A stretch of 64,000 nucleotides of DNA from Candidatus Methylumidiphilus alinenensis (GTDB lineage: Bacteria > Pseudomonadota > Gammaproteobacteria > Methylococcales > Methylococcaceae), in assembly GCA_003242955.1 (NCBI GenBank), contig QJPH01000143.1, forward strand, positions 15,679-79,678, in the 5' to 3' direction. This document shows, piece by piece, positions 8,650 to 50,503 of the stretch (within the stretch, counting starts at the first letter, position 1; every line of letters starts with the position of its first letter). The notes under the pieces were generated by a model. It worked only from the letters and a program-made list of their open reading frames with translations. It had not been told where the DNA came from and ran no database searches. The translations under genes and the position numbers were made by a program.

Positions 8650-9999
8650 GTGAATAACCAAAATCTCTCCCAACGCGACCAAGCCGTCATCTGGCATCCC
8701 TGCACCCAGATGAAGGATCATGAAGTCCTGCCTGTCATCCCCATCCGCCGTGGACATGGCGTTTGGCTGGAAGATTTCGACGGCAAACGTTACTTGGATG
8801 CCATCAGTTCATGGTGGGTGAACTTGTTTGGTCATGCCAACCCCTACATTAACGCCGCTGTGCGTGGGCAACTGGAGACCTTGGAACATGTCCTGCTTGC
8901 CGGGTTTACCCATGAACCCGCCGTTTGCCTGGCCGAAAGGCTCCTGTCACTAGCCCCTGTTGGTTTAACCCGCTGCTTCTACGCCGACAACGGCTCCTCT
9001 GCCATTGAAGTGGCGTTGAAAATGAGTTTCCATTATTGGCTTAATGCCGGCCAAGCCCGTAAAACCCGTTTTGTCACGCTAGCAAACAGCTATCACGGGG
9101 AAACCTTGGGTGCGTTGGCGGTGGGCGACGTGGATTTGTACAAGAAAACCTATGCCCCGTTGCTGATGACAGCCATCACTGCGCCATCGCCGGATTGTTA
9201 CAATCTTGAACGAGGTGAGTCGTGGGCGGAGCATTCCACCCGCAAATTTCTGGAAATGGAGTCTATTTTAGCAGAACACGCCGATGAAGTATGCGCCGTC
9301 ATCGTAGAACCCTTGGTGCAGTGCGCCGGTTCCATGCGCATGTACGACCCCGTTTACCTAACCCGGCTGAGGGAAGCTTGCGACCGTTACGGTGTCCATT
9401 TGATTGCCGATGAAATAGCCGTCGGCTTTGGCCGGACGGGGACCCTGTTTGCCTGTGAACAGGCCGGTATCACACCCGATTTTCTTTGCCTGTCGAAAGG
9501 CATCACCGGAGGCTATTTGCCGCTTTCCGCCGTGTTGACAAGGGATAGGATTTATCAGGCGTTTTATGGTGATTACACAGCCCAAAAAGCCTTCCTGCAC
9601 TCCCACAGCTACACCGGCAATGCACTGGCCTGCACGGCGGGTCTGGCGACCTTGGACTTGTTCGAGAAGGATGATGTGTTGAAGCGTAATCGCGTCCTGT
9701 CCGGTGTGATGGCTGAAGCAACCAAATCTTTTTCAGATCACCCCCACGTTGCCGAAGTGCGTCAAACGGGCATGATACTGGCCATAGAAATGGTCAAGGA
9801 CAAACTAACCCGCGAACCCTACGACTGGCGCGAACGCCGTGGCCTGACGGTATACCGCCATGGACTTGAACGGGGCGTGTTGCTGCGGCCCTTGGGCAAT
9901 GTGGTCTACTTCATGCCGCCTTATGTGATCACGCCGGAGGAAATTGGCTTCATGGCGGAGGTGGCGTTTGAAGGTATTCAACGGGCGACGGCGCATTAA
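8650..9999 (+). CDS. bioA: Adenosylmethionine-8-amino-7-oxononanoate aminotransferase
   Basis: Class III PLP aminotransferase with IWHPCTQM near the N-terminus and a PLP-lysine context FLCLSKGITGGYLP. I propose the GTG start at 8650 (MNNQNLSQRDQAVIWHP), because the tracked start at 8554 reads through REP G. Confidence 0.85.
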   Translation: MNNQNLSQRDQAVIWHPCTQMKDHEVLPVIPIRRGHGVWLEDFDGKRYLDAISSWWVNLFGHANPYINAAVRGQLETLEHVLLAGFTHEPAVCLAERLLSLAPVGLTRCFYADNGSSAIEVALKMSFHYWLNAGQARKTRFVTLANSYHGETLGALAVGDVDLYKKTYAPLLMTAITAPSPDCYNLERGESWAEHSTRKFLEMESILAEHADEVCAVIVEPLVQCAGSMRMYDPVYLTRLREACDRYGVHLIADEIAVGFGRTGTLFACEQAGITPDFLCLSKGITGGYLPLSAVLTRDRIYQAFYGDYTAQKAFLHSHSYTGNALACTAGLATLDLFEKDDVLKRNRVLSGVMAEATKSFSDHPHVAEVRQTGMILAIEMVKDKLTREPYDWRERRGLTVYRHGLERGVLLRPLGNVVYFMPPYVITPEEIGFMAEVAFEGIQRATAH

Positions 10000-10164
10000 G
10001 GTGATATCCAATAAAGAACATCCCATCCAAAGGCCAAGCTGGGGCTTGGCGCACCTGGAAGGAACGCCAAGCCCCAGCTTGGCAAGGTGATTTGCGGAGG
10101 AATTGTTCGTGATTTTCGTGGACAATTGATTTCGGTTTTGGTGGATTCATTATTGGAAATCACC
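10000..10164. mobile_element. MITE family D, 165-bp copy, inserted at the bioA stop codon
   Basis: TIRs are GGTGATATCCAATAA / TTATTGGAAATCACC. The TAA duplication sits at 9997-9999 (which is the bioA stop codon) and 10165-10167. Confidence 0.85.
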
Positions 10165-35842: not shown

Positions 35843-36007
35843 GGTGATTTCCAATAATGAATCCACCAAAACCGAAATGAATTGTCCACGAGAATCACAA
35901 ACACCTTCTTCGCAAATCACCTTGCCAAGCTGGAGCTTGGCGTTCCTTCTGGGAGCGCCAAGCACCAGCTTGGCCTTTGGATGGGATGTTCTTTATTGGA
36001 TATTACC
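35843..36007. mobile_element. MITE family D, 165-bp copy in inverted orientation
   Basis: TIRs are GGTGATTTCCAATAA / TTATTGGATATTACC. The TTA duplication lies at 35840-35842 and 36008-36010, which is the reverse complement of the TAA seen at the other two copies. Confidence 0.85.
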
Positions 36008-36122
36008 TTACCGTCCATGGCCTGGATTTCGGCATCCATGCCGAAATGACGGATTTTCCGGTTTGGCTGGACTTGTGTATAACGACGAACGCTGGAGCGT
36101 GGTAACGATAAAAACTAAAGAG

Positions 36123-37031
36123 ATGAACATGACAGCCAGACACAGAAAACTTATCAGTTTTGATTGGGCGATCAAGAAAATTCTTCGCAGCAAAGCTAAC
36201 TTTTGCGTGTTAGAAGGTTTTTTAAGCGAATTGCTGTTTGATGATATAACAATTAAAGAAATCCTTGAAACTGAGAGCAATAAAAATTCTAGGGAAGATA
36301 AATTCAATCGCCTGGATATTAAAGTAAAGAATTCAAAAGATGAAATAATAATCATTGAAATTCAATACGGTCGTGAACTGGATTATATGCAAAGAATGCT
36401 GTATGGCTCGGCAAAAGCAATTACTGAATATATTAAAGAATCTGACCCTTATTCAAAAATAGTCAAAATTATTTTAATAAACATATTATATTTTGATTTA
36501 GGCGAGGGCGATGATTATATTTATAAAGGCATAACTTCATTCATAGGTTTGCATAATCAAGGTCAATTAAAGCTGGATAGCAATCAAGCGAAGCTGTATA
36601 AAACGGATAAAATAGAGGCAATTTATCCTGAATATTATTTAATTAAGGTCAATAATTTTAACGATATTGCGAAAGACAGCTTGGATCAATGGATTTATTT
36701 TTTAAAAAATGAAGAGGTTAAGGATGATTTTAAAGCGAGGGGATTGGATAAAGCGAAAGAGATTTTGGATTATTTGAAATGCTCTGATGAAGAAAAAAGA
36801 GACTATGAATACTATAAAGAATCTTTGCATTATCAAGCCAGTATGTATGAATCGACCTATGTGGTTGGGAAAATAGATGGAAAAACAGAGGCTTTTATTT
36901 TATTATTAAAAAGTCGCTTTGGACAATTAACCACTGAGCAAATTGAAAAAATTAAATCGCTGGGTGATGAAAAACTTAACCAAGTTTTACAGAAACTTTG
37001 GACTGCGCAAAGTTTTCAGGAATTATTCTAA
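36123..37031 (+). CDS. Rpn-family recombination-promoting nuclease / putative transposase (PD-(D/E)XK)
   Basis: Very AT-rich. The start is set at ATG 36123 (MNMTARHRKLISFDWAIKKIL). The nuclease core is RLDIKVKNSKDEIIIIEIQYGRE. The first 93 codons of the tracked ORF (from 35844) are MITE read-through. Confidence 0.7.
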   Translation: MNMTARHRKLISFDWAIKKILRSKANFCVLEGFLSELLFDDITIKEILETESNKNSREDKFNRLDIKVKNSKDEIIIIEIQYGRELDYMQRMLYGSAKAITEYIKESDPYSKIVKIILINILYFDLGEGDDYIYKGITSFIGLHNQGQLKLDSNQAKLYKTDKIEAIYPEYYLIKVNNFNDIAKDSLDQWIYFLKNEEVKDDFKARGLDKAKEILDYLKCSDEEKRDYEYYKESLHYQASMYESTYVVGKIDGKTEAFILLLKSRFGQLTTEQIEKIKSLGDEKLNQVLQKLWTAQSFQELF

Positions 37032-39007: not shown

Positions 39008-39060
39008 GTTTTCCTGATTAACAAGATTATTTAGCCAATTTGTAACATCCAGCCGTATTC

Positions 39061-39173
39061 GTCATTCCGGCAGGGATTGCCGGAATCCAGTCGCCATGGA
39101 GGGCAATCTAGGTTCACCTCCCTGTGTTCTGGATACCGGCGAACCCTCGCTTCGCTCTCCCTGCCGGTATGAC
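39061..39173. repeat. Hairpin-module repeat (family A interior without the outer TIRs)
   Basis: GTCATTCCGGCAGGGATTGCCGGAATCCAG...CCATGGAGGGC...CACCTCCCTGTGTTCTGGATACCGGC...CCCTGCCGGTATGAC closely matches 1901-2003. It lies about 200 bp beyond the 3' end of the AT-rich operon. Confidence 0.75.
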
Positions 39174-39386
39174 GCACATATTGGTTTAGCTGAGCAGTCT
39201 ACCTAATCAGGGAGTGCCTTGTGATACGCTAATATTTTACCACCCGAAAGGCTTCCGCCATGATCGACGACAACATAGACCACATCATCATAGAACACCT
39301 GCGGGCTATCCGCTCTTCGTTGGCGCGTCATGACCAGACGCAATACGGTTTACACCGATTGCGCCGCGATGACGAAACTAAAGAGG

Positions 39387-41213
39387 CTACGGTTTTATAA
39401 GTAGGCGAATATCGGGATTGGCGTACATCGTATAGAGAAGTCCTAGTGGATTTCGGTGACGCTTCAACAATTCCCACTTAGCATAATATATGGCTTCACC
39501 TAGCGGGTCTCCACGCAATAGGGATTGGTAAAATATTTTAGAGAATTCGCTGGCAAATCGGTCTGGAATTCTTTCTTCCGTGCCGATGTATCCTCGGTTG
39601 TTATTTGTATTCAAAAAGAACTTAGGAAATGGGTTAGGTGCAAATGAGTCATTATCAGTGCTACCACAAGCATTGAGAAAGATGATGGGTTTGGAAGATT
39701 TGGATTTATATTCTACTCGGTTATATACAAAATGCTTTTGAAGGTCGCCGATACTTGCTTGCAATGTTGATGAAAAACACAGTTTCGATTCGTTTGAGTC
39801 AGCCGGTTCACAAACTTGGCAATGACAGACGAAGTGTTGAATTTGATCGGGACGGCTTTGCATTTCCCCGTTGAAGCGCAGGAACGGATTTTGAAGATGT
39901 TTGGCTAGATTGCCGCGAAAAACACTAGCATCCAGATATTCGCCTGGCCAAGGCCCTTCCAGTTCGAGAAATTGATCATGATCCTTAAAAAACTCCCAAT
40001 TAGATTTAGCTACATGGAGTTCCTGATGGTGGAAATACTTTAGCGGCAGAACGGGGTCATTATCCAAAATCAAATCCTCACTAACATTAGCATCGGATAG
40101 TTCACGATATACCACGCTTGAAAAGCCAGGAAAGCGGCATAAAGCTAGTCGTAATTCGTCATAATTGGCAACGGGCAACCATTCAGTATTATTAAATAAT
40201 GGTAAAAACTCGATAGGTAAAATATCATTAGATTCACCTGACATAACAATCAATGAAGGGGAATTACTGTCATGATTCCATTTTGGACAGCATCTACGAA
40301 AAGTTTTGACTACCTCAGAATCTTGACCATTAAAAAGTATCGATAGGAGTTCGTTTCCAGCGCAATTCAATTCAGACAAGGCTTTGTTTAGTTGATTAAA
40401 TTCGACCTGTAGACCTTCATTTTTCCCTATTTTGATGAGCTTGCGCAAAGCTTTTCGCAAGTTTATTAATTTTGATTTTGTTTCTGAATCATCCAATCTA
40501 TAGGGTAGACAAATTTTTTGTTTGTGAGGTCCGGTAATTAATATTTCATGTAAACTACGCTCATCAACAATATTCGAAATTCTGAGTGTACTTACCATAC
40601 TAGCCCTTTCCGGCTTTTGATCGATGTTTTGATCAAGTTCCCGGTCATTTATGGATTGTGAGGTAAGGCAGGGTAAGTTGTTGACGGTTTTAATAATCTG
40701 CTGAAAGAGTTCTAGGGCGAACTTATCGCGTGTACTTTTTGTTCTGGCATCTTGAAATGTTTTCAGATTTTTATCGGTTTTTAAATGAAAGATTTGCTGC
40801 TTTTCTAGCCCTTTCAGGTCCATGATGCCATCGAACAGAATTGGTGTTAAGGCGACAGGTATTACCCGCTTCCCTGTGTTCGGCACTGCAATGTTAATGG
40901 GGACAAAGGCTGGTAATTCGTGGTTTTCAATATACTCGCTGCCTAAAAAATTCGGACTGACCAGTAACAGACCGAAATGGCAACCAGCGACAGCCGCCTG
41001 AATCTTTTCATGCCAATCTTCTCCAGCTATAATATCCTCATCATCCCAAGCTTCAAAATTGTACTCTTTAGAAATTTTAAGACATTGCTTTAGAGGTTTA
41101 AGTAATTTTTCTTTGAGTTCTTTATCTTCATGTGAATAGGATATGAAATAACGGATTACAGTTTTATTATTACCAGGCTCTTTTAATATAAAAGTTTTCG
41201 ATGATTCATTCAT
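39387..41213 (-). CDS. TIR domain - CHAT (caspase-like protease) domain fusion protein, 608 aa
   Basis: The TIR region runs from about aa 18 to 135 (VIRYFISYSHEDKELKEKL ... LLLVSPNFLGSEYIENHELPAF, candidate catalytic Glu at E96/E99). The CHAT-like C-terminal region (about aa 320-608) has ILPIEFLPLF, a His-box QIQHFVCHC (H460/H464) and a Cys-box PIIFLNACGS (C516). Assignments are by motif only. Confidence 0.7.
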   Translation of the reverse strand: MNESSKTFILKEPGNNKTVIRYFISYSHEDKELKEKLLKPLKQCLKISKEYNFEAWDDEDIIAGEDWHEKIQAAVAGCHFGLLLVSPNFLGSEYIENHELPAFVPINIAVPNTGKRVIPVALTPILFDGIMDLKGLEKQQIFHLKTDKNLKTFQDARTKSTRDKFALELFQQIIKTVNNLPCLTSQSINDRELDQNIDQKPERASMVSTLRISNIVDERSLHEILITGPHKQKICLPYRLDDSETKSKLINLRKALRKLIKIGKNEGLQVEFNQLNKALSELNCAGNELLSILFNGQDSEVVKTFRRCCPKWNHDSNSPSLIVMSGESNDILPIEFLPLFNNTEWLPVANYDELRLALCRFPGFSSVVYRELSDANVSEDLILDNDPVLPLKYFHHQELHVAKSNWEFFKDHDQFLELEGPWPGEYLDASVFRGNLAKHLQNPFLRFNGEMQSRPDQIQHFVCHCQVCEPADSNESKLCFSSTLQASIGDLQKHFVYNRVEYKSKSSKPIIFLNACGSTDNDSFAPNPFPKFFLNTNNNRGYIGTEERIPDRFASEFSKIFYQSLLRGDPLGEAIYYAKWELLKRHRNPLGLLYTMYANPDIRLLIKP

Positions 41214-41261
41214 ATAGGCTTACTGTTATTATTCTTTAAACAAACAGGCGGTCGATGACCA

Positions 41262-42812
41262 TTACAAGGCTAAGTTGACAGTCAGAGTTTGAATGAGTCG
41301 TGTACCCTGTAAAACTTGGACATAAATACGATGATTGGTAATAGAATCATCAATTGATTTCAAGGTGAAATTCAGTTCGGGGATTAAGTCATGGGCCTCT
41401 CTTTCCAGCTTTATTATCTGCCTACTAGTTGTGGCTTGTAATGTTTCAGAATACAAGAAAACAGTAAACTCAACCTCGGGAGTGTCTTGCCCGTCGCGAA
41501 CAACAATTTTCTCATAACAGGCTGAACTAGAATCAGATATATCAATGGGCTGCTCTTGAGTAAATTGAACCCGCATTGTCCATGTTTTCTCAGCACTATC
41601 AGCCTCCGAACCATTGTCAACAAAAATTTCTGCCGCAACATAGCCAGAGTAATTGCTTAGTTGAGGGCCTTGAAAATAGTCAGACAGTTGCTTTATTGAC
41701 TCTGCTTGTTGTTGAAGAATTTCGGTTAAGCGACTTTCAGAAATCATGCCTGTAGGTGTTTGACTGCCTGTATCCATGATGGCCTGTAGTTGCTTGGCAA
41801 GTTTAAATTGCTTTTCAAAGACATGCTGATAAATAGGATTTCTGATGGCACACACGCCTTGGTTATCCCGAATGCACCCTTGCAGGTAGAGGTCTCTGAT
41901 AATCTTGCTGCTTAATGAAAATGGCAGGTTAGCTCCATTGAGGATGGCTTCCAATACTTTGGTAAGGTTTGAATTCAGTTTATCAGTTCCGAAAAGATTA
42001 GATACCATGGTTTGAATATGGGTGGTACTGTCTAGGCCAACATTTTCTAAAAATTCAGAAAGTTTGTCTAACTGATCGTCTATTTCCTTGCTGTCGAGCT
42101 TGTAAAGATGATGGCAAACATATTGAACTAGATACGGATGACCTAAAGTGGTCTCATATATCTTGCTAATTTGAATTTCGGAGAATTTATCATCCGATAG
42201 ACGTGTAATGAGTCCTTGGGTTTCTGATGGAGTGAAATCTGGAAGATAGATTTTTTCTGCTATATTGAATGGAGAGATTAGGTAATTTTCTTCCATGGTC
42301 AAATCTCCTAAATCGGTTGAACCAGCAATTACAAATACATGTTTGTGCTTACTTTTGTCAACGAAACTTTCCATATAATACGCTCGTATGTGTCGCAATA
42401 ATTCAGCTGCAACTTCTCTGTTGGGGCATATTTCATCGATAAGGAATATTATTGGTTTGTTATTATGTAATAACCTAAAATAATCAATTATCCTATCTGG
42501 TGTAGTGCTGTCATAGTGATATATAAGGTGTTTGGTTTTACTCCAGAACTCATGTGTGACTTCTTTAATATCATAAAAACCACATGCTTCTAAATTGATA
42601 TGAATATATATATATTTATCAGTAAACTCACTATCTAGCGCATTAAGTAAAGTGGTTTTCCCTGTTTGCCTAGAAGCCATTATGGATATGCATGTCTTAG
42701 AATTAATATCATCATAAATCTCTTTAACTATTTTTTCTCTAGTTACCGATTTATCTTTTAATATTGGGCTTGTATACACAAATGGATTGGTGGTATTTTC
42801 TAAAGTATTCAT
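41262..42812 (-). CDS. AAA-like (ORC/Cdc6-type, Pfam AAA_35-like) P-loop ATPase with an uncharacterised C-terminal domain, 516 aa
   Basis: Walker A is IMASRQTGKTTLLNAL, Walker B is PIIFLIDEI, and the motif TTLGHPYLVQYVCHHL follows. The last ~170 aa (from about SNYSGYVAAEIFVDNG) look beta-rich with no recognisable motif. There is an 8-nt gap to the upstream gene. Confidence 0.65.
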   Translation of the reverse strand: MNTLENTTNPFVYTSPILKDKSVTREKIVKEIYDDINSKTCISIMASRQTGKTTLLNALDSEFTDKYIYIHINLEACGFYDIKEVTHEFWSKTKHLIYHYDSTTPDRIIDYFRLLHNNKPIIFLIDEICPNREVAAELLRHIRAYYMESFVDKSKHKHVFVIAGSTDLGDLTMEENYLISPFNIAEKIYLPDFTPSETQGLITRLSDDKFSEIQISKIYETTLGHPYLVQYVCHHLYKLDSKEIDDQLDKLSEFLENVGLDSTTHIQTMVSNLFGTDKLNSNLTKVLEAILNGANLPFSLSSKIIRDLYLQGCIRDNQGVCAIRNPIYQHVFEKQFKLAKQLQAIMDTGSQTPTGMISESRLTEILQQQAESIKQLSDYFQGPQLSNYSGYVAAEIFVDNGSEADSAEKTWTMRVQFTQEQPIDISDSSSACYEKIVVRDGQDTPEVEFTVFLYSETLQATTSRQIIKLEREAHDLIPELNFTLKSIDDSITNHRIYVQVLQGTRLIQTLTVNLAL

Positions 42813-42820
42813 AACGACAC

Positions 42821-45800
42821 CTATTTAGGGTATATTTCACTGATTCGTTCGAGTAAACTGACAGCCGTCAACTCAACTTCGATGTGTTTTCCAAGAATGA
42901 AAGGCAGGTCAGGCAGGACAAAACTATACAGAATGCTTTCCGGTTCGTGCTTGAGGATAGTTGCTAAAACTAATTTCTTCATCAGATTAGCGATTTCTTT
43001 ATCACTCAAATTAACATCATATATTTCTAGCAAACGTTGTAATTCAAAAGGTGTAAACTTATTGCCAAGTTCATATTTTTCCCTTTCATTAGCATATTTA
43101 CGAGTTATTTTACTGTAAGCTATGCGGTCAATAATAATTTTACCTAGTTTCTTATCAAAACAAGCCATCATTAAATAAAGTAATAGCTTGGATTGATCAT
43201 CCAAATTATACAAATAAACTTCAATCATATGTTCGCAAAATGTTGTAGAATTAATCACTTTGTCAATGTCATCGCGACTAATTTCCCTCACTTTGCGTAT
43301 CTTGTCAATACGAATTATTTTCGCGCAGCAAAACTGAATGAAGTTGGGATAACAAGCTGTTTTCTCGGTGATATATCTTATGTTATTTTTGTCAATAGTG
43401 AGAATGTTCTTAAAAGGTTCATCAATCAGTGCCATGGCATCTTTTTCAGCCAAAGATCCGAGTTCTAGTTTTTCCAAAAAATTAAACAACGGCGATTGGA
43501 TGTCATGCATCCGGAAGTAGAGTTCGCGGTAGCCGGCTACAACAATCTTGACTGAGGCTTCATTAATCAGTGCCCTTAAGGTTCTTGAAAATGTCTCACC
43601 CGTTGGCAGCAGATCATCCAATTCGTCGAGGAAAAGTACCAGCTTGCATTTATGGCTTTTACAGTAATCATCTACCTGGGTGATAAAATCGGCTATGGCA
43701 TTAAATGCAGTGGTTATTTCCAATTTTCGAAACAACCCCTTCCCCCATTCCAAAATATCGGAACCGTACGGGCTACAATCTAGATAGACAGTTTTGAAAT
43801 GTTTGCGTTTGTCGATCTCATCTTTGATACGCATCAATAAAGAAGTCTTGCCTATGCGTCTAGGGCCAATGATGGCATAACATTTTTTGTTGGGTTGCAG
43901 GATAGAATTTATAATAATTTGGGTTTCATTTTCTCGACCATAGAACATTTCCCTGACCGGGCCGGCAATTTGGAAAGGGGACAAGGCAACGAGATTGACC
44001 TGTCCAACCAGCAAAGACAGGAGTTCCTCATGGGGATTGTTGGCAAGAAGAATATTCTTTAAATCCTGGTAATCTAGCACGGCAGTCGAAAAGCTTAGTG
44101 ATTCATTTTTCAGCGTCGTTGTTATAAATTCTATCCTCTCTGGTGCAATAACTAGGACAATCCTCCAATTAGTCGTGGATTTAATCCAATGATTTACCGT
44201 GCTGTAGTCAGTGCCTTTCAACACAGTAACAAGTATGCAATCAAAACCATGAAATTTGATAGATGGAATTTTAATTTCAAAAACTTCCAAATGTGGTTGT
44301 AAGTTTAGAGGAACGGGTACGCGTTCTTGGAATAATACCTTGACGGTGGCGCAGAGTATTTCCAGATGGTTTTGCCTGAGCAATTCTTTTTGTTTCTGAT
44401 TGGCTTCATATTTTGAATTAAGTGCAATCGAAAGGTGGACAAGATTCGCCCACTGTTCTGGGTTTATCAAAAGAAAATCAGTTACCCAAGGTAGTTGTTT
44501 TTCTTTATTCAAGGCTACATCAATTTTACATACATCAATAAGCTTGATTGCTGCAATCAGCTCTTGCCGATGTTCAAGTGCTGTTTTGAAGACATCTTGG
44601 TGAGTTGAAATCCAGTGGGCATAACCGCTATCTTGCAACAAGTAATGGCTTTCTTTTTGTTCAACGTGGCTAACGATTAGTTTTAGAGCCTCCAAAGATT
44701 GGACACCCAGCAAGACATTGTCTTTTGGAAAAAAATGCTTGATTCTATGCAGCTTATCGTGAATGCCGGTAAGTTCAGCCCCGCCGAGGGACAGGGCTAT
44801 CAAGACCATTTTCTCCGCCAACGTATGTTTAGCCCATAATAGAGCATATCCCTTTTCCTGATTGCAAATAGTTTCCAACTCTTTAAGGTAATTTGGACTG
44901 ACCACTCGGTAGCGGTTGACAAGCCCCTGAGCGAGTGCAACGATAATTTCTTGACCCGTTCCATTATTGGCTAAACTATGCACTGCCGTAGGCATATCGG
45001 CTAAAAATAGTTCTTTGGTTTTTTCGCCTTCTAGGGATAGGAATATCAAACTACGTTGCCGTGTGCCTATGATAATTTCTTGGCTACCCTTATAAGTCTT
45101 GCCTAAAGCTATCGAAATTAGCTGCCTGTCTATGTTGTTAATGATGCAAAATCTCGACTTCTCGCCATCAGCATGGACACTGTAAATCGAATCAGGGGTT
45201 AATACATAAAAATGCGGATTGCCTTGCTCGTTTTCAATGCAGACCCAATCCAGCACATTGACGGAATCGCCTAGCTCCAACCATGGCTGCTTGAATGGGT
45301 CAGCCTGTGTTTCAGGTTGATTTAGAAAATCGTTGATATTTTGCATACGATAGATGCAACCTGTCACCGTGATGACATAAAAAGTTATTTTATCCTTAGC
45401 AACTTTTAATTCCATCTTGATAGGAATGGCTGGCAACGTAAACTCCCTACGCTGTACATTGCCAGCCTGGATAACGATGTCATTATTCACTAGCCCGCAT
45501 GCCAAATAATCTTGGCCTTGGTGGTGGAGTGCCGTTAAACAGCAAATTGCCTTGCTATAACTGGCAAAGGGTTTATCCATGTCAAGATAATCAAAAGAGT
45601 CAAGCTTAAAAACGTCTGAACCGTTTCCTATGAAATATTGTTTTTTGCTACCATGGATAAGGACGATGTGTATTTCTGTATCATTAAAATGTTTTTTATC
45701 AATTCTGCCCTTGTCTATCCTATAAAGATCACCTTCTGAACTTGCTAGTATAATCCTGTTGCCACCATCAATGGATGAGATGAACTCGATATTCTCTAGT

Positions 45801-47479
45801 CTGAGGTGTGATTCCAACAAATCCATCCCAATCAATTTTAAATTGTCTAATTGTTTGTAGGCATCGGGAAATAAACCTTCCGAAGATAATCGTTTTATGT
45901 CCTCACTACGCCGGATCGGTAAATCCTTCCAACGAATTTTCTCTTCTGTGAATTCTTTGAATTGACCTAGAAAATCATTACCACTGCCAATAACATTATT
46001 GATTTTTTCTAATTCAAAGCATATTTGCTCACAAGTAGGTAAGTTTTGATATTTTTTATATAATCTTTCAATAAATTCAAATGTGTAACGTATAAGAATT
46101 TTTTCATTTTGATATTTTTTTAATAAATAACCCAATTTTTGTAAAATTTGTAAATTAACGTCATAAACCTGCTGTTCTTCAATAGATTGTAAAAACTCCA
46201 CAACTTGATGGCAATCCATTTCCCGCTCAAGGACATCCATTCCATATCGGGCTACTGCGGGATATTTTGACTCACTGAACCAATTTAGAATCTCTTTGTT
46301 TCCATGACTTTTTTTCAAATCATTAAATGCTTGTGCAATTTTTTTATTGATGGTGGAACCTATATATATCTTGAAAACTTGCAATTTGCCATTGGCCAAC
46401 CCTGCAATAACCCGCTTCTTATCCAACTGCCTAATATTACCAGCCCACAACGCGGTTACCCGATGTTCGGTGGGATATTCCCATTTGATACGCAACTCAC
46501 GTCTGTCAGGATCAACGGCAAATACATAGATGCGGTTGCTGGCACCTCCAACTAATATTTCTAGTATGCCATCGTTGTCAATATCGTCACAATATAAGGA
46601 ATGAAACTTATCGGCACATTTGATCGAGTATTTTAATTGCGTCGTGTGTAGATCATAGATGTCCAGTTTGCCATTGGAAGCACAAGCAATAATGCTTTCG
46701 CTACCTTCATTATCGGGATCGGCTACTTGGACGCAAATATATAAGCTCGAATGGGCAAAACTTCGAGGTGTCATATTTATATACCCATGCGGATTGATGT
46801 CGTATACGATAATCCCTCCCCCATGCATAATACCTACCAGATGGGAGTCTTGTATAGTGTTTGCATCAGTAGGTGAAGGCAAGTCGTCAATTTGAAAGTG
46901 TTGGATATTTTTTAGAGTGTCTAGTTCTTGATCCGGTTTGTTAGGTGAAAAAGGGCTAAAGCGATAAATTTTATTATTCGATGCCGCCAAATATAGGTGT
47001 GAATCCTTGTAAATTATACAATAGATTTCCAAATCATCTTCTTGTTGTCTTGGTATACCAATGATTGAGCGTAAGTCAGCTGAAAGTTTATTACCTTGTC
47101 TCGAAAAATGATAAATGGCAGGCGGTGCATTCTTTTTATAAGCAACGAGCATGGCGGAATGTGTACTTGCCCCCCTGCCATATTTAAAAAAACGTAATTC
47201 TTGGAAGCCACTAGGATTGTCAAGTTGTACAATTTTTTGCAGGTTCTCACCACAGGAGTATATCTTGCATCTACCATATGTAGTGATAATGTTCACCTCT
47301 TTGGTGGTGTTGTTATCGATATCGACGGCTTCAATGGCAATAACACCCCCATGACAGTGAATTTCATCAATCAGATCAAGTTTGTGTTCTTTAACAAGTA
47401 AAAACTTCTGGATCGCTTTAAAATACTCCTGATGAGATAAATCTTCTTTCCCTGCACCAACTAAATTATGCTGTATCAT
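42821..47479 (-). CDS. Giant (~1552 aa) protein: N-terminal FG-GAP-like beta-propeller, helical linker, second propeller-like region, C-terminal P-loop ATPase plus helical/wHTH-like tail
   Basis: An FG-GAP-like blade CDDIDNDGILEILVGGASNRIYVF lies at ~46560-46600. Repeated strand patterns occur (ACASNGKLDIYDL, AGLANGKLQVFKI, LASSEGDLYRID). The ATPase lead-in is SPFQIAGPVREMFYGRENE, Walker A is YAIIGPRRIGKTSLL (Lys codon 43847-43849), and Walker B is LVLFLDELDD. I prefer ATG 47479, preceded by GGAGG, over the tracked TTG at 47494. Confidence 0.65.
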   Translation of the reverse strand: MIQHNLVGAGKEDLSHQEYFKAIQKFLLVKEHKLDLIDEIHCHGGVIAIEAVDIDNNTTKEVNIITTYGRCKIYSCGENLQKIVQLDNPSGFQELRFFKYGRGASTHSAMLVAYKKNAPPAIYHFSRQGNKLSADLRSIIGIPRQQEDDLEIYCIIYKDSHLYLAASNNKIYRFSPFSPNKPDQELDTLKNIQHFQIDDLPSPTDANTIQDSHLVGIMHGGGIIVYDINPHGYINMTPRSFAHSSLYICVQVADPDNEGSESIIACASNGKLDIYDLHTTQLKYSIKCADKFHSLYCDDIDNDGILEILVGGASNRIYVFAVDPDRRELRIKWEYPTEHRVTALWAGNIRQLDKKRVIAGLANGKLQVFKIYIGSTINKKIAQAFNDLKKSHGNKEILNWFSESKYPAVARYGMDVLEREMDCHQVVEFLQSIEEQQVYDVNLQILQKLGYLLKKYQNEKILIRYTFEFIERLYKKYQNLPTCEQICFELEKINNVIGSGNDFLGQFKEFTEEKIRWKDLPIRRSEDIKRLSSEGLFPDAYKQLDNLKLIGMDLLESHLRLENIEFISSIDGGNRIILASSEGDLYRIDKGRIDKKHFNDTEIHIVLIHGSKKQYFIGNGSDVFKLDSFDYLDMDKPFASYSKAICCLTALHHQGQDYLACGLVNNDIVIQAGNVQRREFTLPAIPIKMELKVAKDKITFYVITVTGCIYRMQNINDFLNQPETQADPFKQPWLELGDSVNVLDWVCIENEQGNPHFYVLTPDSIYSVHADGEKSRFCIINNIDRQLISIALGKTYKGSQEIIIGTRQRSLIFLSLEGEKTKELFLADMPTAVHSLANNGTGQEIIVALAQGLVNRYRVVSPNYLKELETICNQEKGYALLWAKHTLAEKMVLIALSLGGAELTGIHDKLHRIKHFFPKDNVLLGVQSLEALKLIVSHVEQKESHYLLQDSGYAHWISTHQDVFKTALEHRQELIAAIKLIDVCKIDVALNKEKQLPWVTDFLLINPEQWANLVHLSIALNSKYEANQKQKELLRQNHLEILCATVKVLFQERVPVPLNLQPHLEVFEIKIPSIKFHGFDCILVTVLKGTDYSTVNHWIKSTTNWRIVLVIAPERIEFITTTLKNESLSFSTAVLDYQDLKNILLANNPHEELLSLLVGQVNLVALSPFQIAGPVREMFYGRENETQIIINSILQPNKKCYAIIGPRRIGKTSLLMRIKDEIDKRKHFKTVYLDCSPYGSDILEWGKGLFRKLEITTAFNAIADFITQVDDYCKSHKCKLVLFLDELDDLLPTGETFSRTLRALINEASVKIVVAGYRELYFRMHDIQSPLFNFLEKLELGSLAEKDAMALIDEPFKNILTIDKNNIRYITEKTACYPNFIQFCCAKIIRIDKIRKVREISRDDIDKVINSTTFCEHMIEVYLYNLDDQSKLLLYLMMACFDKKLGKIIIDRIAYSKITRKYANEREKYELGNKFTPFELQRLLEIYDVNLSDKEIANLMKKLVLATILKHEPESILYSFVLPDLPFILGKHIEVELTAVSLLERISEIYPK

Positions 47480-47487
47480 GCGTGATG

Positions 47488-47492
47488 CCTCC
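47488..47492 (-). promoter_or_regulatory. Shine-Dalgarno (GGAGG) for the giant ATPase gene
   Basis: GGAGG on the minus strand lies 8 nt upstream of ATG 47479, inside the 21-nt gap after the GH57-like gene stop. Confidence 0.55.
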
Positions 47493-47500
47493 AAGGTTTA

Positions 47501-48859
47501 TTAGGTGTTGTTGATATTCCGAAGCTCATGGTAATCAATCGCTTGTTTGATGGAGTTTAACCAAGGCAATATTCTTTTCTTAAAATCGGAGTCTGTATTC
47601 AATTTTGCCAGGGATTTATCCAGTTCAGAATTGAGTTCTTCTTGTGTGCGCTGGTGTATCGCCCACATCAGTTGCGTGTAAATCTCTTGACCTGCTTTCA
47701 GTAGCTCATAATTATCCATTAGGGAAGCAGTCAAATACAGTGTCCGCATTTGTAAATCAATGCCCTCATAGATTCGCTCTGGATTCCAAAACCAGATCGA
47801 AGCCCAAAAGTATTGGGTTGAATAAAATGCCCGGTCCAACAAATCGCGTAGTTTATTTAATCCAGAGTGTTGTTCATCACCCTCGATATTGAAATTAATG
47901 TTTGAATTAGCATCCCATATCAGATCGGTCAGCTTCCAAAGGTTTTCATGGATAGGATTGTCTTTGGATTTCCACAAGGGGTAGTAATCTCCCCTTTTAT
48001 AGTTATCCGGCTGAGTTGCCCAAGAGCAGGGTGGAAAATACTCAAAGATTTGTCCAACTTCTTTGGGTTTTTCAATCTTGCTTAGACCTTTGATGTTGAG
48101 CAGATCGGACACCAAGCATAATTCTACAGAATCTGATTTCGATAATTTACACAGCATGTCCCTCAGAAAAGTCTCCTGATAATATTTAACATGATGACCA
48201 AAGGTTTCCCCGGATATGGCAATGATAGTGTAGCAGTCTTGCTGTTGCAGTTGAATTTCAGCCTCCATTTGTCGAACAAACTCCCGACCCGTCAGATGAT
48301 GCCCATTTTTAATACGATTGCTCCATAGTTCACTCCTCATGAACACTGCAATGTCGTTGACATGGTAAATTTCGTGTTGAGGAATCCTTATCCCATTTAT
48401 TTCCATCACGCAATCATCAATAATCGTCCATTGAAAGCCCATCTCTTGATATAAAGGTAAAAGTTTGTCGTGATAGCACATTTCAGGAGAAAAAATACCC
48501 GATGTTGTAGTAACTCCGAAATGTTCGGACTTTAAATCCTTATCTAATGCAATTTGTCGTTTGACTTCTTGGTCTGGTAACAATGGAAAGATGGGATGGT
48601 AAGCCCCGGTATGGATCATTTCTATTTTGCCGAACTTAACCGCCTGTTTAAGCCCTTCTATGACTTTGTCTTTACGGAATTCGATTAATAAGCTGGCTAA
48701 AGAATTGGCAAGGGAAACGGTGAATTTGGCATTGGGTTTGGAATTGAATAGTTCCACTAGGGGTTGGTAACACTCACGGGTCACCTCGTCGATGACTTTG
48801 TCGTTTTGTGATGAAGGTTGAAATAAATCCAGTAAAAACGCCACATACATTTTAGCCAT
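47501..48859 (-). CDS. GH57-like protein, paralogue 2 (probably non-catalytic), 452 aa
   Basis: GH57-type regions are present: GKIEMIHTGAYHPIFPLL, GIFSPEMCY and YSTQYFWASIW. However, region I is DLFQP (His replaced by Asp) and region IV is IIAISGETFGHH (the acid/base Asp replaced by Ser, codon checked in the DNA). TAATG gives a 1-nt overlap with paralogue 1. Confidence 0.65.
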   Translation of the reverse strand: MAKMYVAFLLDLFQPSSQNDKVIDEVTRECYQPLVELFNSKPNAKFTVSLANSLASLLIEFRKDKVIEGLKQAVKFGKIEMIHTGAYHPIFPLLPDQEVKRQIALDKDLKSEHFGVTTTSGIFSPEMCYHDKLLPLYQEMGFQWTIIDDCVMEINGIRIPQHEIYHVNDIAVFMRSELWSNRIKNGHHLTGREFVRQMEAEIQLQQQDCYTIIAISGETFGHHVKYYQETFLRDMLCKLSKSDSVELCLVSDLLNIKGLSKIEKPKEVGQIFEYFPPCSWATQPDNYKRGDYYPLWKSKDNPIHENLWKLTDLIWDANSNINFNIEGDEQHSGLNKLRDLLDRAFYSTQYFWASIWFWNPERIYEGIDLQMRTLYLTASLMDNYELLKAGQEIYTQLMWAIHQRTQEELNSELDKSLAKLNTDSDFKKRILPWLNSIKQAIDYHELRNINNT

Positions 48860-50049
48860 TAGCGGTTCTCCAAAAGATGTCTTTTATTCTCAATTGCGGT
48901 CACCAATTCCCTAAATAATTTCTCGCCTTTGCCAATATCATCATCATTACCGGTCATCACCCAAGCCTTTTGCAGAATGCGCATCAAATTGAATGCCCCC
49001 TTGTAAATTTCCTGTGAATTCTCAGGTTTGTCGAATTTCCAATAGTTGGCCCACCAGAACTGACAAGAGTAAAGGGCTTTGTCCATATCCCCATTCAAGT
49101 TTTTATCGTTCAAGCGTCGCACATTGTCCAGTACAAGGTCACAAAATTGCCATTGCAAGGTATGGATGGGATTTTTATGGCTTTTCCACCAAGAAAAATA
49201 ATCCCGGTTGTCAATGTCGGCACGATCTGTAGACCAGGAGCCGGGCGGGATAAACTGGGTTACCTGCTTGAAATGATGAAAGATTTCTGCCAAGTGGGCG
49301 GTTCGTATCTCATCCTTATGCTGGTCAAAAGCAGCAAACATTTCACTAAGAAACACTTCGCTATATTTATGTTGATGATGACCAAAAGTTTCCCCATCCA
49401 GCGCGATGATCAGATAGCCGTCTTGGTCCCCCATCCATTGTTTCATGGAAGCCAGCAACTCTTCGACAAATTCCTGCCCATGGACCCAGTTGTTATCGTT
49501 ATTGGCAAAGCGGTTGGACCAATGGTTGCTACGCAACAACACCCCTAATTCATCTTGGCAGTAAACGGTGTCAAACGGAACTTCGATGCCATAATAGTCC
49601 AGATTGCCATCGTCGGCGATAGTCCACTGATAACCGAGGGATTTTAGCTGGGAAGCCAGATTGCCGGTGAAGGCCAATTCAGGAGAAAAGACTCCTTGTG
49701 GATTGAATTCAGCTGTCAATAAACGCTGATTGCCTTCATGGTTTAGCCGTATCTGCCGTTCCACTTCTTCATAAGGTATCAATGGGAAGATAGGGTGGTA
49801 AGCCCCGGTTTCGGTCAACTCCAAAATTCCTTCGTCATGCGCGGCGCGGATATTCTCAAGTATCTGCGGAAATGGATCGTGGAGTAATTCGACAAGACTG
49901 TAGTTGATGTTCAAGGTGAATTTCAAGCCGCTGGCTTCCCTGATTTTACGCGTCAGCGGTTCGTAGCTCTCCCGTACAATTTTAGCCAGCATATCAAATT
50001 CTTGTACAGGTGGCTGGTAGATGTGAAACAGAAAGTTGACAAATTTCAT
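48859..50049 (-). CDS. GH57-like glycoside hydrolase, paralogue 1 (catalytic motifs intact), 396 aa
   Basis: The start is set at ATG 50049 (MKFVNFLFHIYQPP). Regions are HIYQP, GILELTETGAYHPIFPLI, GVFSPELAF (nucleophile Glu), IIALDGETFGHH (acid/base Asp) and YSCQFWWANYW. The 55 upstream codons of the tracked ORF are MITE read-through. Confidence 0.7.
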   Translation of the reverse strand: MKFVNFLFHIYQPPVQEFDMLAKIVRESYEPLTRKIREASGLKFTLNINYSLVELLHDPFPQILENIRAAHDEGILELTETGAYHPIFPLIPYEEVERQIRLNHEGNQRLLTAEFNPQGVFSPELAFTGNLASQLKSLGYQWTIADDGNLDYYGIEVPFDTVYCQDELGVLLRSNHWSNRFANNDNNWVHGQEFVEELLASMKQWMGDQDGYLIIALDGETFGHHQHKYSEVFLSEMFAAFDQHKDEIRTAHLAEIFHHFKQVTQFIPPGSWSTDRADIDNRDYFSWWKSHKNPIHTLQWQFCDLVLDNVRRLNDKNLNGDMDKALYSCQFWWANYWKFDKPENSQEIYKGAFNLMRILQKAWVMTGNDDDIGKGEKLFRELVTAIENKRHLLENR

Positions 50050-50056
50050 CAATAAT

Positions 50057-50061
50057 CTCCT
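50057..50061 (-). promoter_or_regulatory. Shine-Dalgarno (AGGAG) for the first gene of the AT-rich operon
   Basis: The minus strand reads AAAGGAGATTATTGATG, with AGGAG 7 nt upstream of ATG 50049. Confidence 0.55.
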
Positions 50062-50117
50062 TTGACTGCAATAGCTAGGTTGCCTTGGGAACAGGCTTGA
50101 TCCAGTGATTTTTACGC

Positions 50118-50196
50118 CGTCATTACAAAAGGCTTGTCGTCGCTTGAGGTTTGCCATCCCTGGACGCTGGATTCCTGCATCCATGCCGGAATGACG
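50118..50196. repeat. Degenerate family C hairpin-module element just upstream of the operon
   Basis: CGTCATTAC...CTGGATTCCTGCATCCATGCCGGAATGACG. It is related to the elements at 50363-50503 and 58498-58636. Confidence 0.6.
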
Positions 50197-50362
50197 GGCC
50201 CGGCGTAATTTCAAGCATTGCCGAGTTTGTGTGCATCACGTTTAATCGTACCCACCTTTCGCAAAAAATCCACCGGACGTACAATAGGAATATTACCATA
50301 ACTGCCAAGTGTCAACAGATCATGGTCGCCGGACACAGCAATTCTCATTTTGGCTAGAACGC

Positions 50363-50503
50363 CGTCATTCCGGCAGGGATTGCCGGAATCCAGATGCCAT
50401 GGACGGCAACTCGACGCTCGCAAGTGTTTGATTCAGGGTGTGTGCCAGCCCGCAGTTTCACATCCCTGTGGACTGGATTCCGGCAATCCCTGCCGGAATG
50501 ACG
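50363..50503. mobile_element. MITE family C (141 bp) with ~30-bp terminal inverted repeats
   Basis: CGTCATTCCGGCAGGGATTGCCGGAATCCAG ... CTGGATTCCGGCAATCCCTGCCGGAATGACG. A homologous copy lies at 58498-58636. Confidence 0.8.

Follow-up and report, generated by a model that had tools for sequence, protein, structure and literature searches.

A 1552-residue protein in which two predicted beta-propellers precede a C-terminal P-loop nucleoside triphosphatase (NTPase) is encoded on the reverse strand of a 64,000-nucleotide stretch of DNA from the methanotroph Candidatus Methylumidiphilus alinenensis (contig QJPH01000143.1, positions 15,679 to 79,678; the whole stretch is referred to below as the window). 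Based upon the sequences of the protein and its neighbors, we propose that the gene encodes a large NTPase that acts as the sensor or scaffold of a conflict cassette of five genes, spread by horizontal transfer. The cassette would most likely be an anti-phage system of the abortive-infection type, and a probability of roughly 0.6 is assigned to this reading. In addition to the large protein, the cassette encodes two paralogs of glycoside hydrolase family 57 (GH57-A and GH57-B), a smaller paralogous NTPase matching AAA_35, and a protein combining a TIR domain with a caspase-like CHAT protease. Coordinates of all features are collected in Table 1.

Gene integrity and natural alleles

The reading frame at 42821..47494 on the reverse strand amounts to 1557 amino acids (aa) from an upstream TTG and to 1552 aa from the ATG at 47479. 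The 1552-aa translation is exactly that of public protein entry PZN84815.1, 'hypothetical protein DM484_02320', from the Candidatus Methylumidiphilus alinenensis metagenome-assembled genome (MAG). Full-length homologs aligned collinearly from Met1 to the C-terminus, six at 34-39% identity and one (P0001) at 88%, and an exhaustive HMMER profile search of 1.84 billion representative proteins yielded about ten further full-length clusters of 1511-1563 aa, a cluster being a set of proteins grouped at about 50% identity or more. These additional clusters came from the exhaustive search, as a second word-indexed homolog search with an N-terminal profile returned no new members. The end-to-end architecture is common to at least 15 sequence clusters. 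Because homologs align collinearly over their full length, frameshifts and gene fusion are excluded and 42821-47479 encodes a single intact gene. This is in agreement with a preliminary description of this DNA, made from the sequence alone, which had treated the open reading frame (ORF) as one gene without naming its strand; the contrary case it had raised, of two or more genes split by frameshifts, is ruled out by the same alignments.

In most metagenome contigs from Methylumidiphilus populations, many of them from lakes, the gene is split, a 1031-aa piece being present in 26 contigs and a 520-aa piece in 47, while the intact 1552-aa form was found in only two contigs of the cluster. Junction mapping of the split-allele loci (L003-L006 and L014-L015) showed that the split is caused by an insertion sequence (IS) of the IS630 family, about 1.24 kb long, with a DDE_3 transposase and terminal CTCCC... 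inverted ends, which is inserted at TA 44419/44420 (codon ~1020) with duplication of the TA. Taken without their context, the many contigs with separate pieces would suggest that two or more genes had been joined here by an assembly or annotation error. This explanation is given next to no weight, as the pieces flank the insertion, the target site is unoccupied and undamaged in the window, and a collinear protein of ~1550 aa recurs in more than 15 independent lineages.

Domain architecture of the N-terminal three quarters

Structure prediction was performed in two segments with AlphaFold2 (AF2), using shallow alignments of 6-7 sequences. The N-terminal model (aa 1-1165, 6-sequence alignment) had a mean predicted local distance difference test score (pLDDT) of 63.9 and a predicted TM-score (pTM) of 0.38, with pLDDT values of 70-89 in the blade regions at aa 150-345 and 600-780; the C-terminal model (aa 860-1552) reached a pLDDT of 79.4 and a pTM of 0.59. 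Domain boundaries in the models were close to those of the preliminary description, and every motif that it had quoted was found, including DIDNDGILEILVGG at aa 299 and FHGFDCILV at aa 1076 in addition to the Walker motifs of Table 1.

The first propeller had been described as carrying FG-GAP-type blades, and this assignment is borne out by Pfam, by a structural match and by conservation. When aa 1-391 were scanned alone, Beta-prop_BBS7 (33.1 bits), BBS2_Mid (32.6) and Itfg2 (27.9) all exceeded the Pfam gathering cut-off of 27 for each, and chains of the KICSTOR subunit ITFG2 in the PDB were matched at E 1e-4 in a family profile search. The matched region, aa 248-370, comprises about two blades, the remaining blades being predicted by AF2 only; the FG-GAP/BBS7/BBS2_Mid/ITFG2-type blades are the last ones of the propeller (aa 247-371). 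They contain two DxDxDG-type loops that are invariant in the family alignment, DPDNEG at aa 254 and DIDNDG at aa 299, with invariant residues D254/D256/N257/G259 and D299/D301/G304/E307.

A helical linker and a second propeller, also proposed beforehand, are both present in the AF2 model. The linker is predicted as an alpha-solenoid with an invariant LPTCEQIC motif at aa 480. Foldseek searches of the N-terminal model against the PDB returned tandem-propeller proteins, namely Utp12/13/21, subunits of intraflagellar transport complex A (IFT-A) and DDB1, with E values of 1e-16 to 1e-13 and TM-scores of 0.17-0.23; such low TM-scores are expected, because the relative orientation of the domains is not predicted. 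The second propeller is without a Pfam match and is the most variable domain (31.5% mean pairwise identity). Per-domain identities identify it as the fastest-evolving domain across the family and the NTPase as the slowest, as expected for a sensor and a switch.

The region between the second propeller and the NTPase had been considered a region of unknown fold. This holds in part: a winged-helix domain and a helical bundle are now predicted, and the alpha/beta domain that follows is still without a match, neither a Pfam scan of the segment nor a search of the PDB with a 14-sequence profile giving anything significant. The alignment of 14 sequences revealed no invariant catalytic-looking constellation of residues in this domain. 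A PD-(D/E)xK nuclease was considered, given the beta-beta-beta-alpha-beta pattern, and was dropped since no acidic/Lys constellation is invariant and E1068 varies.

The Pfam matches to BBS7, BBS2_Mid and Itfg2, the propeller-solenoid-propeller layout and the IFT-A subunits among the Foldseek matches could also be read as a bacterial membrane coat or BBSome-like scaffold (a 'protocoatomer' of beta-propeller plus alpha-solenoid) that is driven by the ATPase and organizes membranes or compartments, and methanotrophs do have intracytoplasmic membranes. We regard this as very improbable. The similarity to BBS proteins and ITFG2 is limited to about two FG-GAP-type blades, the structural matches are generic tandem propellers with the low TM-scores given above, membrane-binding and transmembrane elements are absent, and the partners are a protease, a TIR protein and NTPases within an accessory cassette that is often knocked out.

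In the comparison of the window protein with P0001, its 88% identical homolog, the NTPase and C-terminal domains are the most diverged (81% and 77% identity), while the winged helix and solenoid are 94-97% identical. This reverses the pattern among distant homologs, in which the NTPase is the most conserved domain, and hints that the 3' part of the gene has recombined or is mosaic.

The C-terminal NTPase

The NTPase borders on the nSTAND1 model of the STAND class (signal-transducing ATPases of numerous domains) and is closest to archaeal ORC/Cdc6 proteins and the 'archaeal ATPases' of PF01637. K1211, D1285 and E1286 are invariant in seven sequences, completing the P-loop and Walker signatures, and a helical lid and winged helix are predicted that align with ORC/Cdc6 and with nucleotide-binding leucine-rich repeat (NLR) structures. 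A GxP-like motif, T-[AG]-x-Y-P-N-F-I-Q, reads 'ACYP' in the window protein and 'G.YP' in many relatives, and is thus near the textbook GxP without being identical to it. The best Foldseek matches of the C-terminal model were Aeropyrum pernix ORC2 (1w5t, 6e-8) and Sulfolobus Cdc6/Orc1 (2qby, 2.8e-7), with Pyrococcus PABY2304 (2qen) and Sulfolobus SSO1545 (2fna) at target-normalised TM-scores of 0.61 and 0.57, respectively, and 7jgr also matched; in all of the best structural neighbors an AAA+ core is combined with a lid and a winged helix. The ORC/Cdc6-type structures ranked above plant NLR resistosomes and Apaf-1. A profile search of the PDB gave Cdc6 at 3.6e-7 and 2fna at 1e-5.

At the family level, Pfam AAA_22, ATPase_2, AAA_35 and AAA_16 match seven of seven members and nSTAND1 matches six of seven (best E 7.6e-10), the window protein scoring 25.4 bits against a cut-off of 27.1 (E 1.4e-5). 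Pfam gave no NACHT or NB-ARC matches. Foldseek, the PDB profile and Pfam therefore support the earlier assignment to ORC-like, archaeal-type ATPases rather than NACHT or NB-ARC, and segment-wise structure prediction followed by Foldseek, the check suggested at the time, yielded both the propellers and a C-terminal NTPase of the ORC/Cdc6 type. The ATPase and its tail do lie at the C-terminus, although they occupy ~390 aa in the AF2 model instead of the ~430 aa first estimated. A search of viral structures with the C-terminal model returned generic AAA+ and replication factor C (RFC) proteins only. No conserved Box VII-type arginine was evident at the corresponding position of the family alignment (inspected by eye), and no replication genes lie near the NTPase gene, contrary to what is expected of true ORC/Cdc6 initiators.

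In the canonical STAND order the effector comes first, the NTPase lies in the middle and the sensor repeats come last (PMC13581612). The window protein departs from this order, with repeats at aa 39-858 and the NTPase at aa 1165-1400 followed only by a winged-helix/helical tail, and the AF2 models contain no effector domain in the large protein.

A five-gene cassette on a low-GC island

The gene lies within a low-GC island at 39387-50214 (~38% GC, flanks ~50%) that holds five co-directional genes separated by gaps of -1, 21, 8 and 48 nucleotides (nt). When the island was scanned for promoters and terminators, their numbers did not differ from those in shuffled sequence, so the operon structure is deduced from gene spacing. 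The neighboring genes had not been covered in the preliminary description. Transmembrane segments are absent from all five proteins, indicating that the system is cytoplasmic.

The two GH57 paralogs are 32% identical to each other. GH57-A keeps the nucleophile Glu of conserved sequence region 3 (GVFSPELAF) and an Asp (ALDGETFGHH), both residues being conserved in six of six loci; in GH57-B the Glu is kept and the Asp is replaced (AISGETFGHH in the window), with Ser, Thr, Ala or Pro at this position in all seven sequences. We take this Asp to be the acid/base residue of GH57 enzymes, in conserved sequence region 4. GH57-A could be aligned with the Thermococcus litoralis 4-alpha-glucanotransferase 1k1w, an alignment that extends only to the Glu region. 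GH57-A therefore carries both catalytic residues and appears catalytically competent, and GH57-B, lacking the Asp, is a probable pseudo-enzyme. In P0063, a natural fusion protein of 1956 aa, a pseudo-enzyme domain of the GH57-B type (aa 19-259) precedes a complete family member, and this Rosetta-stone fusion argues for physical association of GH57-B with the large protein.

The small NTPase is 26% identical to the NTPase of the large protein. It carries a Walker A motif (SRQTGKTT), a Walker B motif (FLIDEI) and a canonical GHP, and motifs of these three kinds recur in each of the six partner NTPases that were aligned. In the TIR-CHAT protein, TIR occupies aa 23-124 and the CHAT caspase-like module aa 197-604, with His in QHFVCH and Cys in FLNACGS; the latter segment is orthologous to stand-alone CHAT proteins of related loci (E 1e-58). 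Pairwise BLAST detected no homotypic adaptor domain common to the NTPases and the CHAT protein, and the window contains no Pepco ORF.

The operonic GH57 pair, together with the two predicted winged-helix modules, would also suit a carbohydrate regulon in which a sugar-sensing STAND-type transcription factor binds DNA through its winged helices and controls the GH57 genes. MalT itself is a STAND NTPase that regulates alpha-glucan genes. Such a role is nonetheless improbable, since one GH57 copy is a conserved, probably inactive pseudo-enzyme, the operon always comes with a second NTPase and usually with CHAT, TIR or Pepco, ORC/STAND modules in general have a winged helix behind the NTPase, and the cassette is rare, mobile and often disrupted by IS elements.

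Mobility of the island also bears on a further alternative, namely that the NTPase is a transposition-associated AAA+ regulator of the TniB/TnsC type belonging to a mobile element's own machinery. The NTPase does have a weak TniB match (Pfam 1.7e-4, reaching 1.9e-10 in relatives) and a PADLOC TnsC match at 4e-6, and the mobile island has repeats resembling repetitive extragenic palindromes (REP-like) at both edges. The chance of this being so is very slight, however: none of the loci has a transposase or TnsA/B gene within the conserved cassette, the AAA_22 and TniB matches reflect general P-loop kinship and fall below ATPase_2 and AAA_35 at the family level, and the REP-like repeat occurs across the genome, 15 of its copies lying in the window.

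Table 1. Features of the propeller-first NTPase gene and of the surrounding island (window coordinates)
Feature	Position	Strand	Basis
Whole gene, propeller-propeller-NTPase protein PZN84815.1, 1552 aa	42821..47479	-	Intact ORF; stop codon 42821-42823
Beta-propeller 1, aa 39-371, ~7 blades, 27 strands	46367..47365	-	AF2, Pfam, ITFG2 PDB match, invariant alignment columns
Alpha-solenoid linker, aa 376-559, 11 helices	45803..46354	-	AF2, family alignment
Beta-propeller 2, aa 564-858, 25 strands	44906..45790	-	AF2, Foldseek, per-domain identities
Winged-helix domain, aa 862-948	44636..44896	-	AF2 helix-helix-helix-strand-strand, pLDDT 81-91
Helical bundle, aa 951-1046, holds IS630 insertion site	44342..44629	-	AF2, junction mapping
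Alpha/beta domain, aa 1049-1160 (IPxVKFxGFD ... IVLV ... DLK)	44000..44335	-	AF2, 14-sequence alignment
P-loop NTPase core and helical lid, aa 1165-1400	43280..43987	-	Pfam, PDB profile, Foldseek, invariant motifs
C-terminal winged-helix/helical module, aa 1401-1552	42824..43279	-	AF2, Foldseek alignment; kept in all narrow-family members
Walker A GPRRIGKTS, aa 1205	43841-43867	-	Invariant in family
Walker B LFLDELDD, aa 1282	43613-43636	-	Invariant in family
GxP-like motif KTACYPNF	43340-43363	-	Family alignment
GH57-like paralog A, 396 aa from ATG 50049	48859..50049	-	Pfam Glyco_hydro_57 2.6e-28
GH57-like paralog B, 452 aa	47501..48859	-	Pfam 3.7e-32; ends 21 nt before the start of the large gene
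Small NTPase, 516 aa, AAA_35	41262..42812	-	Pfam AAA_35 2.9e-19; starts 8 nt past the stop of the large gene
TIR-CHAT protein, 608 aa	39387..41213	-	Pfam TIR_2 1.7e-13 and CHAT; PADLOC ThsB-like TIR 3.7e-10
REP-like palindromic repeat pair, downstream island edge	39060..39174		Repeat search
REP-like palindromic repeat copies, upstream island edge	50179..50503		Repeat search

Several additional features of the island and its surroundings were observed. Read from a TTG at 50214, the GH57-A ORF would encode 451 aa, its first codons overlapping a REP-like copy at 50179-50196; most public gene calls are 395-396 aa long and fit the ATG at 50049 (MKFVNF...), the deposited MAG annotation being the long form. 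The copies of the REP-like palindromic repeat (core CGTCATTCCGGCAGGGAT; 0 expected by chance in the window) are mostly inverted pairs in intergenic DNA, with 12 sites elsewhere in the window, among them 1903, 17074, 35703, 37328, 51658 and 58498. Those at the island edges include a 47-nt direct pair that is 94% identical, and the copies could be recombination substrates for gain and loss of the island. Island-specific att sites were rejected as an interpretation of the flanking repeats, as the same element occurs throughout the window. A few kb from the island, in a second low-GC patch (GC 0.33 at 36000-36999), the ORF at 35844-37031 on the forward strand encodes a PD-(D/E)XK_2 'nuclease family transposase' domain with DUF4351 (Rpn-like) and represents another small accessory insertion; the copy of the cassette in another strain (L006) has a DUF4351 gene just upstream.

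Related cassettes and their distribution

The order GH57-A, GH57-B, large protein, AAA_35 was retained in every related locus with enough sequence (L001/L002, L007, L008, L012, L013 and L016), the GH57 pair being upstream in seven of seven loci and the AAA_35 partner downstream in six of six. Like the effector slots of defence systems, the fifth position is variable: it holds TIR-CHAT in the window, CHAT followed by Pepco (PF24393, 8.4e-17) in L001/L002, and CHAT in L008 and L013. In L012, whose contig ends just after the fifth gene, that gene (9525-10163) encodes a 212-aa membrane protein with hydrophobic N-terminal helices and a weak Rhomboid-like match, which points to effector swapping.

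Relatives of the cassette adjoin integrase, ParA-like and helix-turn-helix (HTH) genes as well as IS or Y1-transposase genes, and the upstream neighborhood of the cassette differs in another Methylumidiphilus strain, where it includes DUF4007 genes and a D12-class methyltransferase. A scan of JGI metagenomes added a single truncated locus, L016, and no member was found among IMG/VR viral contigs. The survey of phylogenetic distribution proposed in the preliminary description confirmed the architecture in at least 15 clusters and in the sister family described below, with the narrow family known from metagenome contigs only.

A larger sister family with the same order

The N-terminal 1165-residue profile holds no ATPase, yet 49 of the 70 long proteins among its top matches have a homologous NTPase near the C-terminus. 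These searches delineated a sister family of at least about 90 clusters at 90% identity, 1600-1730 aa in length, many of them from Ktedonobacteria and one member being encoded in the complete genome of Ktedonosporobacter rubrisoli. Existing annotations are limited to 'FG-GAP-like', 'PQQ-binding-like' or 'BamB'. The order of domains is two FG-GAP/BBS-type propellers, HEAT repeats and an ATPase_2/nSTAND1 NTPase, with BBS2_Mid matched at 1e-25 to 2e-30, BBS7 at ~1e-24 and PHTB1_N at 2e-11, and with HEAT_2 matching the region that corresponds to the solenoid of the window protein. As the sister family has the same order, the inverted arrangement of propellers first and ATPase last, recognized in the preliminary description and conserved throughout the narrow family, is a conserved design and not a one-off.

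In all sister neighborhoods examined (four distinct ones from five loci of Ktedonobacteria and soil metagenomes, two of which share one context: L009/L010, L017, L018 and L019) the large gene is divergently paired with a gene for an nSTAND2/nSTAND1/AAA_35 protein of ~465 aa, homologous to the AAA_35 partner in the window (hhalign probability 99.1%). Pairing with a small paralogous NTPase is the most constant feature of these proteins. Beyond the partner, a His_Phos_1 phosphatase gene occurs in L009/L010 and L017, with a zeta-toxin/AAA_33 gene between the two in L009/L010, and a TerC gene follows the large gene in L017 and L019; these arrangements are not known to have been reported before.

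Comparison with known systems

The closest published parallel to the NTPase pair is a mobile two-gene nSTAND2 counter-invader system that is predicted to form a toroidal hetero-multimer (Kaur et al. 2021, eLife, PMC8195603), which the divergent nSTAND2-type pairing of the sister family recalls. Both consist of adjacent paralogous STAND-type NTPase genes on mobile DNA with variable effector modules, and the nSTAND1 matches of the narrow family provide a further link to the clades defined in that study. The differences are considerable. Both NTPases keep GK[ST] and DE motifs here, whereas one is eroded in the published system; CHAT, alone or together with TIR or Pepco, has a gene of its own as the effector rather than being fused to the inactive NTPase as GT4 or HEPN are; the large NTPase is preceded by some 1,160 aa that comprise the propellers, the solenoid, the winged helix and the alpha/beta domain; and a constant GH57 enzyme/pseudo-enzyme pair is present in addition to the separate CHAT gene. 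The text of PMC8195603 describes no propeller-first architecture.

In common with Apaf-1 in the apoptosome and with bacterial Apaf-1-like STAND proteins (PMC13581612), the cassette combines a STAND-type NTPase, two beta-propellers as the putative sensor and a caspase-family protease as the output. The order is reversed relative to Apaf-1, with N-terminal propellers and the NTPase last, the propellers are of FG-GAP/BBS rather than WD40 type, ORC/Cdc6 and PF01637 proteins, not NB-ARC, are the nearer relatives of the NTPase, the protease is encoded apart, and a second NTPase and GH57 proteins are added. The archaeal ORC/Cdc6 and PF01637 proteins (1w5t, 2fna, 2qen) share the AAA+ core, lid and winged helix found in the C-terminal 390 aa, but stand alone at 350-400 aa, whereas here they form the tail of a 1,552-aa protein in an effector-bearing operon.

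Experiments have demonstrated that Pepco forms pores as a toxin and is switched on by a linked protease in anti-phage modules (Evans et al. 2025, PMC12642450). The adjacency of CHAT protease and Pepco genes in L001/L002 resembles these modules, and the sequence of events proposed below (sensor, NTPase oligomerisation, protease, latent death effector) would parallel that of antiviral STAND (Avs)/bNACHT systems and of the Pepco and EACC1 protease-effector modules (PMC12642450). A canonical Avs protein unites effector, NTPase and sensor, in this order from the N-terminus, in one polypeptide; in the cassette the arrangement is inverted and five genes divide the functions among them.

With regard to eukaryotic propellers, BBS2, BBS7 and BBS9 of the BBSome and ITFG2 of KICSTOR share cytosolic blades with DxDxDG-type loops, and the BBS7, BBS2_Mid and Itfg2 models score above threshold here, eukaryote-derived models of this kind scoring much more strongly in the sister family. 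Unlike BBSome proteins, the window protein matches in about two blades and has no GAE or platform domain, and the bacterial proteins are fused to an NTPase.

Proposed function

Under the proposed anti-phage reading, the N-terminal super-module of two propellers, solenoid and winged helix would recognize an invader-derived ligand, either a protein or a glycosylated molecule, with GH57-B probably tethering the GH57-A/B pair to the super-module. Binding would release the C-terminal STAND/ORC-type NTPase, which with ATP would co-oligomerise with its small paralog, and the oligomer would concentrate and activate the CHAT caspase-like protease by induced proximity. The protease would then trigger a killing module: in the window a TIR NADase acting through NAD+ depletion, in some relatives the Pepco pore toxin, and in another a membrane protein. 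Such a complex would in effect assemble the parts list of an apoptosome, namely two propellers, a STAND-like NTPase and a caspase-like protease, with the sensor placed before the NTPase and the protease acting in trans. The frequent natural inactivation by IS630 is what would be expected of a costly, potentially self-toxic accessory system.

Several observations weigh against this proposal. The propeller models are of moderate confidence in AF2, and Foldseek gives them low TM-scores against known structures. A role of GH57 proteins in defence is pure inference, and the literature searched contains no published link between GH57 enzymes and defence. No other known defence genes immediately adjoin the cassette in the window, where the flanking genes are RlmL and a BrkB-like gene. 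PADLOC-DB v2 returned no system match, giving weak partial matches to TnsC (4e-6), PDC-S27 (1.5e-5) and the ThsB-like TIR, and NCBIfam gave no match for the large protein, the AAA_35 partner or GH57-A. Furthermore, family peptide patterns detected no member in 185,579 GTDB species-representative genomes, in which only a weak 72-residue FG-GAP match in a Rikenellaceae MAG was returned, and enrichment in defence islands was therefore not computable.

The same components in the same order could also serve a module of regulated proteolysis or programmed cell death that is not aimed at phages, responding instead to endogenous stress, kin conflict or development. In one variant the large NTPase would sense an internal cue, for example the state of storage alpha-glucan by way of the GH57 pair, and fire CHAT/TIR. 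The conserved catalytic residues of GH57-A suggest a real glucan substrate, NTPase-caspase systems have been linked to multicellular and social bacteria (Kaur et al., PMC7159879), and the sister family is concentrated in Ktedonobacteria. We consider this alternative unlikely, as a low-GC, mobile, patchy and often IS-inactivated cassette fits accessory immunity better than a housekeeping or developmental role, and the swappable effector slot can hold Pepco, which was validated in an anti-phage context.

Any particular ligand is proposed with considerably less confidence than the general anti-phage function. Lectin-like and glycosyl-transferase modules of STAND systems have been proposed to read or modify glycosylated invader molecules (PMC8195603), which makes a glycan-related trigger conceivable. 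Extending this idea, the GH57-A/B pair mounted on FG-GAP-type propellers might be the pattern-recognition module of the first intracellular bacterial immune receptor complex of this kind, sensing or unmasking a glycosylated invader molecule such as glucosylated phage DNA or a phage glycan and signalling through an 'inside-out apoptosome'; in this specific form the proposal is speculative and we hold it to be doubtful. As a corollary, the cytosolic FG-GAP propellers of the family, including those of the sister family, could be the prokaryotic source of the propellers of eukaryotic BBS2/7/9 and ITFG2.

Implications

Three features are unusual among NTPase-centred, caspase-terminated conflict systems of prokaryotes: the sensor-first order, the constant GH57 enzyme/pseudo-enzyme pair, and a putatively heteromeric NTPase pair of which both members look active. 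No GH57-containing defence cassette or propeller-first NTPase is described in the literature searched, which also held nothing relevant on bacterial ITFG2/BBS2 homologs or AAA_35. Most of what can be said about function comes from the operon, which gives the finding greater value than the preliminary description had supposed.

A conserved lineage, with about 15 clusters carrying the GH57 cassette and some 90 or more in the sister family, places a very large putative sensor before its NTPase, with effector, co-NTPase and accessory enzymes as separate genes. If functional as proposed, this arrangement would widen the architectural rules for mining immune receptors, current pipelines being anchored on sensors at the C-terminus. 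Glycoside-hydrolase-like proteins would join the components of bacterial immunity, and the joint firing of a caspase-like protease by two paralogous NTPases could be studied in a compact model. The strong matches of BBS2, BBS7, BBS9 and ITFG2 models to cytosolic bacterial proteins may bear on the origin of those eukaryotic propellers. Candidatus Methylumidiphilus is a dominant methane oxidiser of boreal lakes, and the frequent inactivation of the system by IS insertion in its host populations may be ecologically relevant to virus-host dynamics in these lakes.

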